Below, piece after piece: positions 29,530-44,710 of a stretch of 64,000 bases of DNA; within the stretch, counting starts at the first letter, position 1; every line of letters begins with the position of its first letter. The position numbers were made by a program, and so were the translations under genes. The stretch lies in sequence record PV245935.1; one strand, written 5' to 3'. The stretch is from Escherichia phage kaset. The notes under the pieces were generated by a model, which saw only the letters and a list, made by a program, of their open reading frames with translations, was not told where the DNA came from and did no database searches.

Positions 29530-30504
29530 TTAAAAATACTCCATATCGGTAATATCACGGAAGCATTTATACAAGGCAGAGCGCGGCACGTCAACGATGC
29601 CAAAGTTGAAGAATTTATATGTCAGATACTTGTTGCGATAATTCTCGCGATTCTCCCAAAGCATTTTTCTCTCTGCCATAGGCATTGAACCAGCGGAGAC
29701 GCGGAAAGGAATCATTTCACCTTTCTCATCAACATATTTTGGATTGACAACCACAAATGATCCAAGGTATCCTTTTGCAACTAAGCCTTCAGCCTCTTTC
29801 GAACGCTTAGTGCGACCCAACTCATCAATGAATGCTTCGTTGTTGTTCTCCATCATCTCAACGAAGTCTATGATCAGTCCTTCTTCATCGGTCCACGGCT
29901 TGTCCTTCCACACATCACGTGACTTTGGCGTCGCGCGACCATGCTTGTATTTGCCCGTCCAAGACTTGCCATACAAGCCTTCATAGCCAAGTTGGTCTGC
30001 TTCGATTTGCATTGCCGCGTACTGTTCCATATTTTCGATGTTGCGATATTCGAGAGCGCGAAGGAATGGACGTCGGCCATGGTCAATGAGATATTGATTG
30101 ACCTCAGCAACGCGTCGATTATACTGCTCATAACGTGCCGAGAAAGGCAAATCAGGTTCGCTAAAGTCATCAAACACCCACCATGTGAAGTTTGTTATAG
30201 CATCGGTATTCATGCAGGCGGTATAGGCTTGCTGCATTACGTTCTTATCATTCGGATTGCCGTCAATAAGCTCTCCATCAAGGCCGTGAATCAATTCACC
30301 CAAAAAGAGGAACTCTTTTTTAATCTGGACGTTTCGAAGCGCCATGCCGGACGTACCCATTGGCAAGTTGTCATACGCCATCGCGCGTATGCCATCGACC
30401 TTGAAGGACAACCCGCAAGGCAGCGGCACATCTTCGCCACGCTCGATAATTTGTTTACGCTGGCAACCTTTCATTGGTTTTAATGCTTTGATTTCCCCTG
30501 CCAT
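29530..30504 (-). CDS. ATP-dependent DNA ligase
   Basis: 324 aa; adenylation motif KVDGIR (KxDGxR). Confidence 0.8.
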   Translation of the reverse strand: MAGEIKALKPMKGCQRKQIIERGEDVPLPCGLSFKVDGIRAMAYDNLPMGTSGMALRNVQIKKEFLFLGELIHGLDGELIDGNPNDKNVMQQAYTACMNTDAITNFTWWVFDDFSEPDLPFSARYEQYNRRVAEVNQYLIDHGRRPFLRALEYRNIENMEQYAAMQIEADQLGYEGLYGKSWTGKYKHGRATPKSRDVWKDKPWTDEEGLIIDFVEMMENNNEAFIDELGRTKRSKEAEGLVAKGYLGSFVVVNPKYVDEKGEMIPFRVSAGSMPMAERKMLWENRENYRNKYLTYKFFNFGIVDVPRSALYKCFRDITDMEYF

Positions 30505-31097
30505 TACTCGCGACCCTCATTCATTACTTGTTCCATTGCGTAGGCATAAGCCTGATCAGTCGATTTGATAAACGTGCCGTTGTACATCACCCCTTTACGG
30601 TCCTTGATGTCTTCATAGGCGGCTTGAGCGCAATCAGACAGTCGAAGTCCATAATCATGCGCTACGCCGGAAAGATAATCGACTGCGGCCATGATAGTGA
30701 CATCAATATCCATGCTTTGATTTTTAGCAATGGCGTCACCAAGCCGTCCGAGAGTCTTCGCCAAGCGAAGGATAAAGGAATGAGGGTGAGCGCCTTTGTC
30801 AGCGCAACCGCCGCCGATGATGTCTTCGATTTTTGCACCATTTTGCGCGGCAAGAATAGTTAACACAACAAGGCAATCACCGATGTCGTCCTTGATTGCG
30901 GCTTGCAAATCACAAATGGCCTGCTCTGTATATCCGATTTCAGGGTCAAAGAACACAAGGTCATGGAGTTGATCCACGTGGTCGGTCAACTCCCCAAACT
31001 CGCTAATAAGCTTCGGGTATTGGTCTTTAAGGTCGCAACCTTTGATGATGTTACGGTCAGAAGCCCATTGGCGAATGTTTGCATAAATCTGGTTCAT
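30504..31097 (-). CDS. MazG-like nucleotide pyrophosphohydrolase (putative)
   Basis: 197 aa; all-alpha pattern KLISEFGEL ... IGDCLVVLTILAAQNG resembling MazG/NTP-PPase motifs. Confidence 0.4.
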   Translation of the reverse strand: MNQIYANIRQWASDRNIIKGCDLKDQYPKLISEFGELTDHVDQLHDLVFFDPEIGYTEQAICDLQAAIKDDIGDCLVVLTILAAQNGAKIEDIIGGGCADKGAHPHSFILRLAKTLGRLGDAIAKNQSMDIDVTIMAAVDYLSGVAHDYGLRLSDCAQAAYEDIKDRKGVMYNGTFIKSTDQAYAYAMEQVMNEGRE

Positions 31098-31669: not shown

Positions 31670-32530
31670 TTAAAACTCTTCTGCGTCGGTCGGAGTTTCA
31701 TTGACAGGACCAGCGGCACCACTTGCTTCTTCCTGCTTGCTGCGGTCAATGTTAACGTTGCCGCCAACTACGTCGTTGTGGAACGCTTTGGCGACTTCGT
31801 ACAGGCCTTTGTCCTGCACCAGACCTTCCAGCTCAAACTTCAGGACGGACCAGGTGTTGCCGTCTTTGGACTGAGACGCAGTACCCATGCGAACGATGTT
31901 CATGAAGGTCGGCGGCATTTTCAGGCCCTGCGGAGTCTGAACTTTCTTCTGCTGCAGCGCGGTCATCAGCATGCGAGACGGCTTGATCATGGAAGAAGTC
32001 AGAGACAGCATTGCGCTACCAAATTCACCAGTTTCTTCGTTCAACAGGATCACAAAGTGGTTACGTGTATCTGCGTAGTAAGGTGATTTCTTCTCGTGCA
32101 CCTTGCCGTTTTCGTCTGGAACAAACACCTTACCGTTGATCTCAACAGCGCGGCCTGCCGCGACTTCTGCATCAACGTGCTCTTTGGTAAATTCACCTTT
32201 AAAGCCTTTATCGTCGGACTCGCGACCGCCCCAAAGGATGAAGGTGCGTTTGAATGCACAAGGGATGATCTGCACGCCTTTCTTGCCGTCATACAATTCA
32301 CCAGTAACGGTATTGTACAACATACCAGCTTTTGCGCCAGGAACGTGTTTTGGATCATCTTCGTCGACCATCGGAGACATCTTTTGCAGTACGACGATAA
32401 AAGGAATGGCATAAGCGTCGGCATCGGCACCTTCAAAACCAGCGCCAAAATCGGTCATATCGACAAAATCAGCCATAGCGGACATCTGGGTGTTTTTCAC
32501 TGCAACTTCGGTAGTTTCTTTCTTAGACAT
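31670..32530 (-). CDS. putative ssDNA-binding protein (acidic C-terminal tail)
   Basis: 286 aa ending in acidic tail ...ETPTDAEEF, as in T7 gp2.5-type SSBs; within replication module. Confidence 0.35.
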   Translation of the reverse strand: MSKKETTEVAVKNTQMSAMADFVDMTDFGAGFEGADADAYAIPFIVVLQKMSPMVDEDDPKHVPGAKAGMLYNTVTGELYDGKKGVQIIPCAFKRTFILWGGRESDDKGFKGEFTKEHVDAEVAAGRAVEINGKVFVPDENGKVHEKKSPYYADTRNHFVILLNEETGEFGSAMLSLTSSMIKPSRMLMTALQQKKVQTPQGLKMPPTFMNIVRMGTASQSKDGNTWSVLKFELEGLVQDKGLYEVAKAFHNDVVGGNVNIDRSKQEEASGAAGPVNETPTDAEEF

Positions 32531-32589: not shown

Positions 32590-33147
32590 TTACTTTTTGC
32601 TTTTAGGCAAGGTTATTTTAGCTTCTTTATACTCAAAGACGCTAATATCTTCACTGACTGGATTACCCGCTTCCAGCTGTTCTTTTACGAATGACTTCAG
32701 TGTAGCAGAATGAACGCCTTGTTTCAACGTGGCTTCAATACCGTCTTCACGCAGCGCGGCAACAATCTCTTGCGCTTGCTCGATTTCTTCGCGACCGAAC
32801 TCAGCCGTGACGCTGGACTTGATCAAGCCGCCGTAACCGTTGTTGACAAGCCAATCGAATACTTTCAATTCATTTTCTTTCTTAATTGAAGCATTGACTT
32901 TTGACTCGACCTTGATTTTGGTCTTGTCTTCAAGCTTGATTTCGGACACGCCAAGCTCATCCATAACGCCAGGAAGCAGAACAGTTTTGATTTCACTGAT
33001 GCGCTGCTTTTGCATATCAGCTTCATCTTCAAGCTCTGTCAAAGCTTCTTGGCGTTCTGCCAATTCCGATACTAAGCGCGCAAGGCGCTCTTGGATGCTC
33101 TCAGGAGCGACCTGCGGCAAATCATCTTCCCAATTAATATTGCTCAT
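32590..33147 (-). CDS. hypothetical replication/recombination-associated protein
   Basis: 185 aa, coiled-coil N-terminus; start lies in copy 1 of a 52-bp tandem duplication. Confidence 0.45.
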   Translation of the reverse strand: MSNINWEDDLPQVAPESIQERLARLVSELAERQEALTELEDEADMQKQRISEIKTVLLPGVMDELGVSEIKLEDKTKIKVESKVNASIKKENELKVFDWLVNNGYGGLIKSSVTAEFGREEIEQAQEIVAALREDGIEATLKQGVHSATLKSFVKEQLEAGNPVSEDISVFEYKEAKITLPKSKK

Positions 33148-38956: not shown

Positions 38957-39508
38957 TTATGCAGTGTACGGAGTGCCGTCTTGATTCAACCGCACGATGA
39001 ATTTAAGGTCTACACCGATGATTTCACGCGTATCAAAGATCACATAGTTGTAACGACGCTGACCAGCAATATTTGGGTTGGTGTGAGAGTCAGTTACGAC
39101 TTCCTGCGCAACCTGAATGCCTTCTTCTTTAAAGAACTTACGCCATTCAGCAAGTTCAGCGACAGTCACGTGCATACCAAGATGGCTGACCTGATTATCG
39201 TGCGCATCGAGCATGTCGATGTTTTCGTTGATCCAGTTGCAACCTTTTGTGTAGTCAAGAATTTCAAGTTCAAGAGGCTTGCCAGCGCCGCCATCGGTGC
39301 CGTTGCCAGCCTGATAGTTGAAGCGCAAGTCAGCTTCATTGGTGCAATCGTCGCGACGACCTTTAAATTCATCAGCTTCAAATACGCGACCAGTAGCAAC
39401 AACATGATCATGGAACCATTCTGTCAGGCCGATTTTGGCCAGAAAATCCTGTGCACGCTGAGCATCTGGAATTGACAGGGCGATTTGTTCAATTTTAAAG
39501 TGTGGCAT
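38957..39508 (-). CDS. hypothetical protein (possible VOC/glyoxalase-like fold)
   Basis: 183 aa; tentative fold assignment from His/Glu spacing only. Confidence 0.3.
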   Translation of the reverse strand: MPHFKIEQIALSIPDAQRAQDFLAKIGLTEWFHDHVVATGRVFEADEFKGRRDDCTNEADLRFNYQAGNGTDGGAGKPLELEILDYTKGCNWINENIDMLDAHDNQVSHLGMHVTVAELAEWRKFFKEEGIQVAQEVVTDSHTNPNIAGQRRYNYVIFDTREIIGVDLKFIVRLNQDGTPYTA

Positions 39509-39747: not shown

Positions 39748-40431
39748 TTATTTCCCAAATGGAATATCAGTACCAGACATAAAGCGCCATGCGCCCGTAA
39801 TTAAGATATGGCGAATGAAGTCAGCAATTACTTGCGGCTCAGTCTCCAATCCATTCATCAACGCCTTTTTCTGGTATTCAGCAGCATACTCAGGAGTCCA
39901 GCCGCGAGTCGCGCAAACAGCATCTTCAATCTGTTTAGACATACCAGTGCCGCGCAACTTGTTAGGACTAATAGAGAATACCGTGATCCCGTATTTAGGC
40001 GTAAGTTCGTGGGCCATCTGCTTACTGATCATAAGCGCAGCGGCCTTGGAAGCATTATAACACAAGCTGGACGTCATAGGAATATGCGCAGCGTTGGAAA
40101 CGATATTGATCACAAAACCTTTGTTGTCGATAAGACTTTTCAGTGTCGCCTGAGTCGTGTTAACGAAAGAGAAAGCGTTGGTATGCATAACGCGGTTAAA
40201 TTCTTCGTAGTTGACATCTTCAAACCAGTTGTTGGAGTTTACGCCAGCACAGTTGATCAAGCCTTCTACATCATATGGGCTTAAAATTTCTTTCATCTGT
40301 TTAGCGTCGCGGACGTCATATCCGTATGCTGAATCGATGCCAAGCACGTTATGACCGTAAGCGCCAAGGGTGTCAAAAATAGATTTACCAAGACCAGAAT
40401 TGGAACCTGTTACAACAATTACTTTTTTCAT
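39748..40431 (-). CDS. short-chain dehydrogenase/reductase (SDR)
   Basis: 227 aa; Rossmann motif VVTGSNSGLGKS, NCAGV, catalytic YNASK (YxxxK). Confidence 0.75.
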   Translation of the reverse strand: MKKVIVVTGSNSGLGKSIFDTLGAYGHNVLGIDSAYGYDVRDAKQMKEILSPYDVEGLINCAGVNSNNWFEDVNYEEFNRVMHTNAFSFVNTTQATLKSLIDNKGFVINIVSNAAHIPMTSSLCYNASKAAALMISKQMAHELTPKYGITVFSISPNKLRGTGMSKQIEDAVCATRGWTPEYAAEYQKKALMNGLETEPQVIADFIRHILITGAWRFMSGTDIPFGK

Positions 40432-40496: not shown

Positions 40497-41369
40497 CTAT
40501 TTATTGAAATTAATATTGTGGGTGTTGACGAGACGTTCACACATGGCGCTGTAAACACCATCATCGTGTATAGAGTCTTCGTGCTTCAGGCCGCTGATTG
40601 CGAAGCGTGTAAGCTTGACAATCTTAAGCTCGAACAGATGCCACATGTGGTAGTCTTCCGGCGTTTTCAACGTTACGCCATTAGGGAAAAGCACCTGCAT
40701 AACCTGGCCAACCATCACGGCGTTATCGCCATAGACAGCGTTGCGCTCACGGAAGGTTGCCGCCATTGCATCAAGAATATCGGCGGCAGTGGCCGGAGAT
40801 TGTTCAATTTCCACAGCCTTAGTCTCTTCTTGCCCTGTTGCGCTTGGATCAATTGCTAATTGTTGCACCACTTCACCTGCCTTGCAAAGATTAAATGTAA
40901 AAGCGATTTTATTTTGAGCAACGGAATTATAATACAATGCTTCATCTTGCATCCGCGCGAGCACGTCTTGTCGGTCGTCGAATACATTGATGATTCGATA
41001 ATCGCCGTGCCGCAATGCGTGCGATAGCCATGCAGATTTCATAATAGTTGATGGACGTTTGTCGCCATAGTCTCTCATCTTGATTGTAAATTCATCAAAA
41101 GGAAAAACATTGTCCAGACGTTCAAAAGTCACTTGTCTGTATTTTTCTGGCCTTGCAGTCCAATATTCAACCGCCTCACCGCGAAGAGATGCCGACTCTA
41201 CTGCTGATGCAATGTGAGGATAGAACTGATCATAACCAATACCGCTGTGATAGTCATCATAGTCTGACAACGGACCTGCCACCTTGATGCGGTCTAAGCG
41301 CCAACGGTCATCAAACAGCGTTCCGTCAAGGTCGAATACGTTTAAGATTTCGCTGTTTTTAATGCTCAT
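40497..41369 (-). CDS. HAD-superfamily phosphatase-like protein with C-terminal extension
   Basis: 290 aa; motif I FDLDGTLFDD, later VFDDRQDV; C-terminal ~130 aa of unknown function. Confidence 0.5.
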   Translation of the reverse strand: MSIKNSEILNVFDLDGTLFDDRWRLDRIKVAGPLSDYDDYHSGIGYDQFYPHIASAVESASLRGEAVEYWTARPEKYRQVTFERLDNVFPFDEFTIKMRDYGDKRPSTIMKSAWLSHALRHGDYRIINVFDDRQDVLARMQDEALYYNSVAQNKIAFTFNLCKAGEVVQQLAIDPSATGQEETKAVEIEQSPATAADILDAMAATFRERNAVYGDNAVMVGQVMQVLFPNGVTLKTPEDYHMWHLFELKIVKLTRFAISGLKHEDSIHDDGVYSAMCERLVNTHNINFNK

Positions 41370-42211
41370 CCTTTTGATACTCCATCTTTAGCGACTGGAT
41401 TGTTGGTGATTGGCATCGCACTCCAAAACTGGATGCGCAACTCTTCTTGCTGTGCCGTGGTATCCATCCAATCACGATACCAAGGGCAATGTGCTTTACC
41501 GTGACGGGGAAATGCGCACTTACCCATACCGATGCATTGCGGCTGTAGTAAAGGATTAGCCCAAGGGTGCACCTTGAGGACTTCCGCAACCATTGCACGA
41601 AATACTTCTTGATACTCGCCTTGAGTGCGCGTGCACAAGCGGTTTGACGCCATCTGCTGCAGCGTGCGCAAGTTGAACTTTGCCATGATATGCGTTTGCA
41701 TATTAGAAGGCAACACGGCACGTGCATCCTGAATCTCTGCGCCAGCCGCGCGAAGTTCTTGGTATAGGGCGTCAATGGTTGCCATTGCATCATCCCACTT
41801 CTCTGCCAGCACACTTCTTTTTTCAGAGTCCCAGTATCCTTCTTCATCCTGGTCGAAAAAGTCTTTTTTACCAAGATCATCTAAACTATCAAAATCACCA
41901 TCCCTTTCAAATGCCTTCGGACGAATTGCATCAAACGCAGACGACTCCTGAGCGCGGCTAGTGCGTTCTTGATATGCGCCTGTGCGTGTGCGCACCATCT
42001 GATGGGTCATGTTCTTTGAAACATCAGTGATGTCAAAGATATAGTCCACAAAGTCAAAGGGCGACTTGATTGTATCAAGCATGTAGCGCCAGTGCTCTTG
42101 CTTCTCTGATTCTGTCATCTCAGAGACAGGCTTGCCAGTCATGCGCGTGTTCTTTGTTTCCAGCAAAAGGTCAAGTGCATCTTGGGTGTATCGAATTAAT
42201 TCAACTTTCAT
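41366..42211 (-). CDS. thyX: ThyX-like flavin-dependent thymidylate synthase (variant RTR motif)
   Basis: 281 aa; VRTRTGAYQERTSR aligns with the ThyX signature RHR-x7/8-S but with His replaced by Thr. Confidence 0.55.
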   Translation of the reverse strand: MKVELIRYTQDALDLLLETKNTRMTGKPVSEMTESEKQEHWRYMLDTIKSPFDFVDYIFDITDVSKNMTHQMVRTRTGAYQERTSRAQESSAFDAIRPKAFERDGDFDSLDDLGKKDFFDQDEEGYWDSEKRSVLAEKWDDAMATIDALYQELRAAGAEIQDARAVLPSNMQTHIMAKFNLRTLQQMASNRLCTRTQGEYQEVFRAMVAEVLKVHPWANPLLQPQCIGMGKCAFPRHGKAHCPWYRDWMDTTAQQEELRIQFWSAMPITNNPVAKDGVSKG

Positions 42212-42225
42212 TTTAATTATTCCTA

Positions 42226-42672
42226 TTAACGGTAATTCACTAATTGCTGATCACCAGAGAAGGTGCAATGATAAACGAATTGTGCGTTGTAAAGCAACTG
42301 AAAACTTTTCTTTGGTTCACTATTAGCACTCATCGATGTGAATACTTCTGCACCGGAACGGTTTTCACCAATCAGATTGATAAAGCCGCCAGTTGAACGA
42401 GGTTGAACGAAAGTGAAACGTTGCATCCACGGAGTCCGGTTGGCACCTTTACCCGTGAATCCTTGAATCTGAATATTCAGACCTTCTTGCTCATTCACAC
42501 CGATGTAAGTGGTAATCTTCGCACCAGTCGTTGCTGCGGTCTTGCCGTCCATCGCTTCGCAATCGTAAACAGCGATTGAATCGGAAGTACGGATGGCAGC
42601 TTCAGTCGCTTCCATATACATGGTGCCGAGAATAGCAGTTGCGGCAAGCGCGATTCCAGTGATTCGTTTCAT
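42226..42672 (-). CDS. secreted protein of unknown function
   Basis: 148 aa; signal peptide MKRITGIALAATAILGTMYMEATEAA. Confidence 0.5.
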   Translation of the reverse strand: MKRITGIALAATAILGTMYMEATEAAIRTSDSIAVYDCEAMDGKTAATTGAKITTYIGVNEQEGLNIQIQGFTGKGANRTPWMQRFTFVQPRSTGGFINLIGENRSGAEVFTSMSANSEPKKSFQLLYNAQFVYHCTFSGDQQLVNYR

Positions 42673-42736: not shown

Positions 42737-43732
42737 TTATTTATTGGCAATATAAGCAAATTTTTGATAGTTATTTGCTTTGATGAGTTTTTCAACTTCA
42801 ACAAGGTCATGAGCGACGTCATCAAGCAAAATGTTGCGCCAGGTAGCGAATCGACCAACACTAAACACGTTCAAATCCATAGTCAGCTGCAGGAGTAGGG
42901 CGTGTCGCAAGTCTTTCGGAATGTCGACAATCTTGCCATATTTCTGGTCGACCTTTTCAACTTCTTCAAGAGCAATGTCACTCCATGAAAGGCCAAAGGC
43001 CGTCAACACTTCGTCGACTTCTGCGCGAAGCTTTATGTCACGGTAACGAGTGATGCCGCCAGCGGCTTCAACTGCAGCTTCACTTACGCTGACCAAAGGA
43101 ATTGTTTCAATGATAAGCGTGTCACCAGTAATTGATGCGCGGTAAGTTCTGACTGAGTAGTCAGGGAAGTAAATTGTTTGATACAACTCACACTTACGTT
43201 TAATCTTAAAGCGGTAAACACGAATGTTTGCTTTATCAAATGAGAAATCAAGCTTTTGATCAATCCCAGCAAGCTTCAGCATGACTGGCAGCGGCGATGT
43301 GTTGATGATTGGCGTCTCGCTATAGCCGCAAAGAGTATCAACCGGAGTATTAAAGAATATGCGGTCACCCAGTTTGTCGACAAGCTGATCATAAAAGTCA
43401 TCAGGCGCAATATAACGCGTTGCAGTTTTAAGCTTCATGATTGAACGGCTGCCAAACTGATTGGTGACCTTCATGGAATACATATTGGCAAGGTTAATTG
43501 GGCAATGGTCGTGGTAGTAGTTGCCGCGAAAATACACAGCCTTGTCAACTGTCACGGCCTTAAAGGGGATTCCGGTAATACGGCTTACTTCTTCGCCACG
43601 GAAGCGTAGCAACGCCTTGTGCTGTTGCGCCCGTTCCCCTGCTTCGTACACAATAGAGTTCGGGAAGTGACACGCTGTGATAAGTCCTGCCAGTCCGCCG
43701 CCGATAATCATTACAGGTTGTTTCATGTTCAT
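42737..43732 (-). CDS. FAD/NAD(P)-binding oxidoreductase
   Basis: 331 aa; N-terminal dinucleotide-binding motif VMIIGGGLAGL. Confidence 0.5.
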   Translation of the reverse strand: MNMKQPVMIIGGGLAGLITACHFPNSIVYEAGERAQQHKALLRFRGEEVSRITGIPFKAVTVDKAVYFRGNYYHDHCPINLANMYSMKVTNQFGSRSIMKLKTATRYIAPDDFYDQLVDKLGDRIFFNTPVDTLCGYSETPIINTSPLPVMLKLAGIDQKLDFSFDKANIRVYRFKIKRKCELYQTIYFPDYSVRTYRASITGDTLIIETIPLVSVSEAAVEAAGGITRYRDIKLRAEVDEVLTAFGLSWSDIALEEVEKVDQKYGKIVDIPKDLRHALLLQLTMDLNVFSVGRFATWRNILLDDVAHDLVEVEKLIKANNYQKFAYIANK

Positions 43733-43864: not shown

Positions 43865-44710
43865 TTATTCCGCTTGATCACCGTCTTCGGCATCGTCGTT
43901 GGATTCAACATCGACAAACTCGATGTGGCCCATCTCTTCCAGCTTGCTCAGGTAGGAGCGAACGGAAGCGCCAAACAGTTGATCTTTAACTTTTTCGCCC
44001 AGCTCATCGATAGACTGCGCCACGCCAACTTCGCCTTCTTTGATCGCCGCTAGAACGCGTCCACGGGTGGAATGCTCTTGCGGCTGGCTCAGGCCATTGC
44101 CAGTGTAGATGAAGTGGGTTGCTTTTGCACGACGCTGACCGTTTGCCTTTTTAGCAGCCTTACGTTCTGCGATGGCTTTGCGACGTTCTTCAGCTTCTTG
44201 CTTACGCTGTTCTTTCTGCTGTTCTGCAGCTTCTTTTGCCGCAATCTTAGCAGCTTCACGCTCTGCCTTGCGTTTCGCTTTAGCTTCTTCTTTGGCCTTC
44301 TCTTTTTCGGCCTTCGCTGCAGCACGGGCTTGATCACGCTCTGCTTTCTTAGCAGCAGCTTGTTCAGCTTTCAGGCGCTTGGCTTCTTCTTTAGCCTTTG
44401 CCTTTTCGATTTCTTTCGCTGCTTTAGCGGCTTCACGCTCTGCTTTCTTAGCAGCAGCCTTTTCTGCGCGCTCTTTGGCCTTCTTAGCTGCTTCTTCAGC
44501 ACGCTTCTGAGCCTTCTCATCAGCAGCCTGCTTGCGTTTCAGTGCAGCTTCTTCACGCTTGGCTTGTTTTTCCTGCTCACGCTTCTGGCGTTTTTCTTCG
44601 GCTTCTTTCTTTTTAGCCAGGCGTTTTTCTTCAGCCACGCGACGACGTTCTGCTGCAGCTGCTTGTTTTTCTTCTTTAGATAATACTTTGATTGCTTCGG
44701 CCATGTTCAC
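43865..44710 (-). CDS. Lys/Ala/Glu-rich helical-repeat protein with C-terminal winged-helix-like domain
   Basis: 281 aa; ~200 aa of KAE/R-rich low-complexity helix (TolA domain II-like) then ~80 aa globular C-terminus. Confidence 0.55.
   Translation of the reverse strand: MNMAEAIKVLSKEEKQAAAAERRRVAEEKRLAKKKEAEEKRQKREQEKQAKREEAALKRKQAADEKAQKRAEEAAKKAKERAEKAAAKKAEREAAKAAKEIEKAKAKEEAKRLKAEQAAAKKAERDQARAAAKAEKEKAKEEAKAKRKAEREAAKIAAKEAAEQQKEQRKQEAEERRKAIAERKAAKKANGQRRAKATHFIYTGNGLSQPQEHSTRGRVLAAIKEGEVGVAQSIDELGEKVKDQLFGASVRSYLSKLEEMGHIEFVDVESNDDAEDGDQAE

Follow-up and report, generated by a model that had tools for sequence, protein, structure and literature searches.

The 64,000-nucleotide stretch of the Escherichia phage kaset genome analysed here (PV245935.1; the window) encodes a 281-residue relative of the flavin-dependent thymidylate synthase ThyX in which the central His of the RHR signature and several linked residues are replaced. 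We consider this ThyX-like gene the best candidate for starting the sugar-bearing thymine of related phages' DNA, and give a probability of about one half to its product being the C5 carbon-transfer enzyme of a thymidine-hypermodification module, either as a deoxyuridine monophosphate (dUMP) hydroxymethylase or through direct sugar alkylation. This reading is favoured because the gene encodes the only pyrimidine-C5 enzyme recognised in these phage genomes, and because it is accompanied by an obligate mutase-like flavoprotein (P330), by a phosphatase and often by a reductase. The window DNA is ~96% identical to that of the E. coli Wifcevirus phages ECML-117, WFH, FEC19 and BASEL Bas98/99, and the phage, an E. 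coli myovirus, belongs to Wifcevirus and is a distant relative of the Pseudomonas phages of Pbunavirus.

Fold, motif changes and retained binding residues

The Pfam Thy1 profile (PF02511) matches the protein with 106 bits (E=2.7e-30; gathering cut-off 24.8), residues 5-217 aligning to positions 2-191 of 191. An AlphaFold model built on 30 homologues (predicted local distance difference test score, pLDDT, 80) adopts the ThyX fold: all 50 matches listed by Foldseek against the PDB are ThyX structures, with probability 1.0 and target-normalised template modelling scores of ~0.72, up to 0.74. Against the NCBIfam thyX equivalog TIGR02170 (EC 2.1.1.148) the protein scores 75.2 bits, below the cut-off of 87.9, whereas the canonical mycobacteriophage L5 gp48 (RHR, H53, Y91) reaches 175.3 bits in the same search. 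The protein is a full-length member of the Thy1/ThyX fold that has diverged strongly from canonical ThyX. Its gene is preceded by an AGGA ribosome-binding site 9 nt upstream of the start, and the GenBank records name such genes 'thymidylate synthase' by homology.

Residues ~100-135 (window ~41807-41914) form an indel hotspot modelled with low confidence. The 281-residue form of the window carries an acidic insert, DGDFDSLDDLGKKDFFDQDEEGYWDSEKR, that is longer than in most Wifceviruses (257-276 residues). A closely similar insert is present in the homologue P0038, which is only 66% identical overall, and this sharing hints at segmental exchange.

The ThyX signature reads in full K66-NMTHQMV-R74-T75-R76-TGAYQER-T84-S85-R86-A87, with the RTR codons CGC ACA CGC at 41984-41992. 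Single-sequence and profile alignments with ThyX proteins of solved structure place R74-T75-R76 on R78-H79-R80-IASYNEL-S88-G89-R90-Y91 of the T. maritima (Tm) enzyme, gap-free nearby. A preliminary description made from the window alone, whose coordinates coincide exactly with the 281-aa frame on the minus strand, had called this a ThyX-family protein with Thr for the central His, and both the Thy1 match and this alignment bear it out. A His merely shifted out of register is ruled out, as every alignment is gap-free around RTR, and the full-profile Thy1 match leaves no doubt of family membership. The same description's reading of the motif as RHR-x7/8-S stands for the RTR but not for the Ser: the canonical Ser (Tm S88, 'x7') corresponds to T84, and S85 lies at Tm G89. 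The canonical RHRx7S with its central His is thus altered at two places, His to Thr and Ser to Thr84. RTR occurs in 120 of the 120 best database homologues, down to ~50% identity and nearly all on Pbunavirus-like contigs of 65-75 kb, and the Thr75 codon ACA is two base changes from any His codon; sequencing error and chance can therefore be ruled out as its source.

The substitution does not stand alone. Relative to the T. maritima enzyme, the changes are His53 to Ile48, His59 to Phe54, His79 to Thr75, Asn85 to Gln81, Ser88 to Thr84, Tyr91 to Ala87, Glu144 to Gln161, Asp176 to Cys193 and His178 to Arg195. The canonical His53/Tyr91 pair is absent, Ile48 and Ala87 being invariant in the clade; in the first motif I48, S50 and F54 are likewise invariant, within a wider subfamily pattern of I/V/L...F. 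Nucleotide and flavin contacts are retained at T55/S50, Q75/Q71, R78/R74, R80/R76, E86/E82, R90/R86, R147/R164, R165/R182 and R174/R191 (Tm/ThyX-like). When the profile alignment is read for the substrate-binding residues, the whole dUMP-binding set (Tm Q75, R78, S88, R90, R147 and R174) is aligned and conserved as Q71, R74, T84, R86, R164 and R191. The RHR residues of ThyX hydrogen-bond the phosphates and ribityl of flavin adenine dinucleotide (FAD) (PMC6514825). In the T. maritima enzyme the stacking partner of the folate pterin, or of reduced flavin, is H53, which Y91 and N85 keep in place; when Y91 is mutated, flavin oxidation slows ~1000-fold (PMC11940539). Because the retained and lost residues divide along these published roles, the dUMP and flavin sites look intact and the side of the pocket that serves folate and NADPH (nicotinamide adenine dinucleotide phosphate in its reduced form) looks rebuilt.

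An exhaustive HMMER search yielded 150 representatives at 50% clustering, of which the 98 full-length sequences were used for residue counts. Positions 53, 59 and 91 are non-canonical in ~88 of the 98. At position 79, 59 sequences have T, 22 have H, 7 have S and 6 have N, a spread which shows the central His to be dispensable in the variant subfamily. This relaxation (T > H > S > N) rules RTR out as the mark that defines the clade; the I/F/non-Y trio at 53/59/91 is the consistent marker and delimits the subfamily better. The preliminary description was right about the RTR residue, and had not seen this larger residue pattern or the gene module described below.

Four cysteines in the C-terminal part are invariant in the Pbunavirus/Wifcevirus clade (pattern R-L-C193, C226-x5-C232-x-F-P-R, C242), C193 lying two residues past the uracil-binding Arg. 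Over the 98 representatives they are all-or-none, 46 having all four and 46 none. This is the behaviour of a metal site, and the four residues probably form one (Zn or Fe-S), undescribed, in part of the ThyX family. Actinophage 'ThyX-like' proteins whose signature is RQR share the pattern, and so do canonical-type relatives; it is therefore an older feature of this ThyX branch and is not tied to RTR. The idea that the four cysteines mark the RTR clade or go with P330 was rejected, since canonical-type relatives have them and many P330-linked members do not.

Restriction to phage-like contigs and linkage to partner genes

The variant clade is confined to phage-like contigs. Among 185,579 bacterial and archaeal species, each represented by one genome, no match to the clade-specific patterns was found, and a broader pattern gave only seven matches in the same scan, all on short contigs of metagenome-assembled genomes (MAGs) and none on a finished chromosome; on five of the seven contigs P330 and HAD/DUF6378 are present as well. 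At least 539 relatives of the ThyX-like protein are found in IMG/VR. Some clade homologues (P0167, P0159) have inteins inside the Thy1 domain. Domain fusions offered no Rosetta-stone clue, the long homologues carrying only inteins or unrecognised extensions.

Linkage was counted in 80 IMG/VR loci of 38-89% identity, of which 73 had enough flank upstream and 75 downstream. Upstream of the ThyX-like gene, 72 of 73 loci have P330; downstream, 75 of 75 have the DUF6378-like domain, and in 57 of 75 a HAD domain can be recognised, usually fused to or preceding the DUF6378-like one. The short-chain dehydrogenase occurs in 43 of 80. The order P330, ThyX-like, HAD/DUF6378 was also found in 9/9 earlier loci with enough flank, comprising Pbunavirus LBL3, F8 and 14-1, a 203-kb Rhizobium phage, unrelated metagenomic phages and five MAG contigs. 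In cultured phages the record counts of P330 and the ThyX-like protein are equal (Pseudomonas 292, Escherichia 26, Serratia 9, Xanthomonas 6). In the window the ThyX-like stop overlaps the HAD/DUF6378 start (ATGA at 41366-41369; Table 1). Among the relatives checked, neither P330 nor HAD/DUF6378 adjoins canonical L5 gp48, the archaeal-virus RHR-type protein or the actinophage RQR-type proteins.

Table 1. Positions in the window of the ThyX-like gene, its motifs and the neighbouring genes
Feature	Position	Strand	Basis or remark
Short-chain dehydrogenase/reductase, 'FabG-like'	39748..40431	-	Pfam adh_short E=6e-31; frequent module accessory
HAD_PNKP-type phosphatase (~11-142) fused to DUF6378-like helical domain (~195-285)	40497..41369	-	Pfam HAD_PNKP E=5e-8
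ThyX-like protein, 281 aa	41366..42211	-	Thy1 domain residues 5-217 and Cys-bearing C-terminal extension; Pfam, AlphaFold/Foldseek, NCBIfam
Four invariant cysteines C193 (in R191-L-C), C226, C232, C242	41486..41635	-	Probable metal site
Variant ThyX signature R74-T75-R76-T-G-A-Y-Q-E-R-T84-S85-R86 (canonical RHRxxSxxxxSxR)	41954..41992	-	Gap-free alignment, codons checked
Variant first motif I48-K-S50-P-F-D-F54 (canonical H53-x-S/T55-x-x-E58-H59)	42050..42070	-	Profile alignment to T. maritima ThyX
148-aa open reading frame, hydrophobic signal-peptide-like N-terminus	42226..42672	-	Between P330 and ThyX-like gene; no family match
P330, 331 aa, N-terminal GxGxxG, FAD-oxidoreductase fold	42737..43732	-	Conserved upstream partner of ThyX-like gene

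P330 belongs to no Pfam or NCBIfam family, and its PHROG has no known function. Its database homologues number 1915, and no Pfam family is assigned to any of the 120 listed. Its best structural match is UDP-galactopyranose mutase, with protoporphyrinogen and amine oxidases scoring nearly as well. The mutase is a flavoenzyme whose ligand is a uridine nucleotide sugar and whose flavin N5 is used covalently. P330 differs from it in being ~130 residues shorter, at 17% identity, with no Pfam GLF or amine-oxidase match and without the full three-domain architecture of the mutase. The DUF6378-like assignment of the downstream domain comes from weak DUF6378 matches in homologues. The 148-aa open reading frame probably stands outside the module, and Pbunaviruses have five small unrelated frames in its place.

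The 'FAD-dependent thymidylate synthase' of Pbunavirus (LBL3 gp57, F8 gp59, 14-1 gp60) is an orthologue of the window protein at ~48% identity, with the RTR and Cys motifs in common and the same synteny of helicase, P330, ThyX-like, HAD/PNK, exonuclease and DNA polymerase. The Pbunavirus proteins differ by a long insertion within the Cys motif, and their module differs in the short-chain reductase, of which no homologue was found among Pseudomonas phages in the organism and host tallies of the reductase's 89 matching records. The reductase occurs in Wifcevirus-like, Serratia and Xanthomonas phages and also in Gordonia phages with RQR-type ThyX-like genes; 35 of the 89 records are from Gordonia and 4 from Microbacterium phages, and gp73 of phage Hawkeye is annotated as FabG-like. 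It may tune the product chemistry. The actinophages that combine RQR-type ThyX-like genes with the short-chain reductase, with records from Gordonia, Microbacterium and Mycobacterium phages, are without P330.

A tblastn search with the ThyA of E. coli gave no match at E<=1 in the window, in the rest of one Wifcevirus genome or in the partner loci, and canonical ThyX was likewise not found in the window or the partner loci. In Rhizobium phage RHph_TM61 the module lies within 5 kb of dUTPase and ribonucleotide reductase, and the 124 kb examined of its 203 kb contain no second thymidylate synthase.

Several further genes recur or stand near the module. A MazG-like pyrophosphatase and proteins like Pam3 gp34 and gp33 (DUF7307) recur near it in the distant metagenomic phages L010 and L013; the window frames of that neighbourhood group are 30504-31097, 31670-32530, 32590-33147 and 38957-39508, all on the minus strand. 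A 183-aa frame between the reductase and the polymerase exonuclease has a weak glyoxalase/VOC-fold match (E=0.004). Just upstream of P330, at 43865-44710 on the minus strand, lies a protein of 281 aa that contains a long low-complexity region rich in Lys, Ala and Glu; it is called 'TolA protein' in relatives, and its Pbunavirus counterpart is a putative structural protein by annotation.

Modified thymine and competing explanations

The DNA of Pbunavirus F8 and 14-1, earlier thought unmodified, resists restriction enzymes with TG in their site and has ~1/4 of its thymidine, in TG context, replaced by new derivatives of that nucleoside with masses of 362 and 390 Da (PMC12191111). These were characterised as sugar-alcohol and cyclic-sugar derivatives, and according to the authors the family has none of the genes previously implicated in DNA modification (PMC12191111). 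By mass arithmetic, 362.3 equals thymidine (dT) plus C4H8O4, or 5-hydroxymethyldeoxyuridine (5-hmdU) plus a tetritol less water, or deoxyuridine (dU) plus an aldopentose less water plus 2H; 390.3 equals 5-hmdU plus a pentose less water, or dU plus a hexose less water. The dU forms have the exact stoichiometry of a ThyX-type reaction with an aldose replacing formaldehyde.

What the analysis shows is that the protein has the ThyX fold with altered motifs and retained binding residues, that it is confined to phage-like contigs and that its gene is linked to partners; the substrate and the product of the ThyX-like enzyme, and its tie to DNA modification, are what we infer. The enzyme would still bind a uracil mononucleotide, most likely dUMP, together with flavin. 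It lacks the His53/Tyr91 gate, by which folate and NADPH are kept against the flavin, as well as the central His that contacts the FAD phosphates, and would act as a pyrimidine-C5 carbon-transfer enzyme within the conserved module. That module, with its upstream UDP-galactopyranose-mutase-like flavoprotein, its downstream HAD phosphatase and DUF6378-like domain and, often, its short-chain reductase, would make the nucleotide precursor of a sugar-bearing thymidine analogue such as those in Pbunavirus DNA, going beyond a mere topping up of thymidine monophosphate (dTMP). Two sub-variants fit the masses equally well, a flavin-dependent dUMP hydroxymethylase and a direct reductive alkylation of dUMP by an aldose.

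We regard as rather unlikely the more specific proposal that a sugar takes the place of the folate-derived methylene, its carbonyl carbon being joined to C5 of dUMP by the flavin-iminium chemistry that ThyX uses. The sugar donor would be an aldose phosphate, or a flavin-N5 sugar iminium from the mutase-like P330. Hydride transfer would then give an open-chain 5-(1-deoxyalditol-1-yl)-dUMP, seen as the 362-Da nucleoside, ring closure would give a C-glycosyl-dUMP (390 Da), and the HAD phosphatase would remove the sugar phosphate.

Known systems offer partial parallels. PolB of polyoxin biosynthesis, a C5-methylase of uridine monophosphate (UMP) and dUMP, is a precedent for recruitment of the ThyX fold to a modified pyrimidine nucleotide (PMC5954106); it differs in being bacterial, in belonging to an antibiotic gene cluster and in that it still methylates, and it is likened here by description only. 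Hypermodification from 5-hydroxymethyl-dUMP in phages M6, ViI, PhiW-14 and SP10 also builds on uracil C5, at the nucleotide level and then on DNA, and replaces only part of the thymines (PMC5889632, PMC8989533). Those pathways use a ThyA-family hydroxymethylase and a 5-hydroxymethyluracil (5-hmU) DNA kinase, whereas here there is no ThyA homologue and the candidate has the ThyX fold. Compared with canonical ThyX (T. maritima TM0449, M. tuberculosis ThyX and L5 gp48), the protein has in common the fold, the Pfam domain, the arginine-rich dUMP pocket and the flavin-contacting Ser/Arg; it differs in the replaced His53, His59, His79 and Tyr91, the Glu144 to Gln change, the four-Cys C-terminal extension, the score below the equivalog cut-off, the restriction to phage-like contigs and the linkage to P330 and the DUF6378-like protein. 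No published description of the variant signature came to light, nor of the four-Cys motif, the P330 family or the module, and we found nothing useful on the enzymology of the clade or on DUF6378/DUF1599.

A number of points weigh against a role in hypermodification. In the searchable literature no member of the clade was found to have been tested by biochemistry or genetics. The conserved 5'-phosphate-binding arginines favour a mononucleotide substrate, while TG-specific modification of ~1/4 of thymines implies at least one sequence-specific step at the DNA level, and no enzyme for that step was found. No glycosyltransferase, deoxynucleoside monophosphate kinase or 5-hmU DNA kinase was recognised among the open reading frames scanned; for the kinase and group-transfer enzymes this was a general scan in which most frames had no family, not a targeted search. 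About three quarters of Pbunavirus thymine is canonical (PMC12191111), so a real thymidylate synthase would still be useful, and the position of the Rhizobium phage module is a classic setting for thymidine triphosphate supply. The adducts of F8 and 14-1 differ, and their ThyX-like proteins (94%) and P330 (97%) are nearly identical, which makes a comparison of the two phages uninformative as to which gene tracks the adduct; HAD/PNK (81%) and small open reading frames are the most divergent, mainly in linkers. Modified DNA has been reported from F8 and 14-1 and from no Wifcevirus, the modification spares EcoRI sites while Wifceviruses resist EcoRI, and the report is a preprint of 2025 (PMC12191111).

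The restriction resistance of Wifceviruses has been reported without explanation. Avoidance of sites was rejected as its cause, since the window contains 11 EcoRI, 5 EcoRV and 5 EcoKI sites though these phages reportedly resist those systems. Over the whole window GATC is strongly depleted (106 observed, 247 expected) and GGATCC does not occur (13 expected); AAGCTT (50 against 18 expected) and CAGCAG (66 against 27) are over-represented.

The foremost competing explanation, possible and deserving of appreciable weight, is that the protein is a genuine flavin-dependent thymidylate synthase converting dUMP to dTMP in a divergent phage lineage, any hypermodification being the work of other genes. 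Thr75 would replace His79 as hydrogen-bond donor to the flavin phosphate, and P330 would offset the lost His53/Tyr91 gate by giving reduced flavin, in a two-component system, or a one-carbon unit. Conservation of all dUMP- and flavin-binding Arg, Ser and Gln residues is consistent with such an enzyme, as are the lack of any other thymidylate-synthase-like gene in these phages, the dUTPase and ribonucleotide reductase near the RHph_TM61 module, the predominance of canonical thymine in Pbunavirus DNA and the inteins of some homologues, which are usual in important replication and nucleotide enzymes. ThyX can reportedly use formaldehyde without folate, which counts on the same side. Yet simple dTMP supply leaves the strict linkage unexplained: canonical phage and cellular ThyX need no partner, and we know of no need of a plain thymidylate synthase for partners of this kind. 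Loss of Tyr91 is strongly deleterious in the canonical enzyme, the score falls below the equivalog cut-off, and absence from cellular genomes would be odd for a merely alternative thymidylate synthase.

It is improbable that the enzyme acts on a different substrate, be it a ribonucleotide as in PolB, a nucleotide of cytosine, or a uracil or thymine base in DNA. Some ThyX paralogues, PolB being one, do accept a wider range of substrates (PMC5954106), and the TG context of the Pbunavirus modification points to some enzyme acting at the DNA level. Conservation of R191 (Tm R174, which contacts uracil O4) and of the 5'-phosphate-binding R86, R164 and T84 instead favours a uracil 5'-mononucleotide, and an Arg at the Tm R174 position would be expected to disfavour cytosine.

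One suggestion of the preliminary description was a conventional ThyX tolerant of the change. Such a protein, with Thr neutral in place of His and otherwise unremarkable, now seems very improbable. Thr could still hydrogen-bond the phosphate, and a few otherwise canonical relatives do have RTR, for example P0251 with H53, H59 and Y91 intact; but the substitution is clade-wide, present in all 120 close homologues, and co-varies across the subfamily with loss of His53, His59 and Tyr91, in a protein that scores below the equivalog cut-off and has obligate partner genes. The description's other suggestion, that it may be a neofunctionalised pyrimidine-modifying enzyme bearing on the phage's DNA chemistry, gains indirect support from the hypermodified thymidine of the Pbunavirus relatives and from the restriction resistance of Wifceviruses. 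The loss of several residues important in canonical ThyX might suggest a protein that keeps the fold but no activity and serves in structure or regulation; this is hardly credible, given how strongly more than 500 viral homologues conserve both the nucleotide/flavin pocket and the variant residues, and given the translational coupling within an enzyme operon.

Implications for Pbunavirus and related phages

For annotation, the hundreds of phage genes now called 'thymidylate synthase' are best treated as unverified. The motifs TIxS..EF and THQxVRTR, together with P330 and the DUF6378-like domain, provide a predictive signature for uncultured phages. Should the protein be a plain thymidylate synthase, it would be a ThyX working without His53, His79 and Tyr91 and with a partner flavoprotein, which would bear on the mechanism of ThyX and on ThyX-targeted inhibitors. 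There is also a realistic chance that the gene encodes a new type of nucleotide-modifying flavoenzyme. If the sugar-coupling proposal were true, it would represent a new class of nucleotide-modifying flavoenzyme that forms C-C bonds; it would explain the Pbunavirus nucleosides, and phages of Wifcevirus, Serratia, Xanthomonas and Rhizobium would be predicted to share the chemistry. Pbunaviruses rank among the therapeutic phages most used against P. aeruginosa, and the phage-only ThyX-variant module is a concrete, testable candidate for the pathway behind their recently reported hypermodified thymine.

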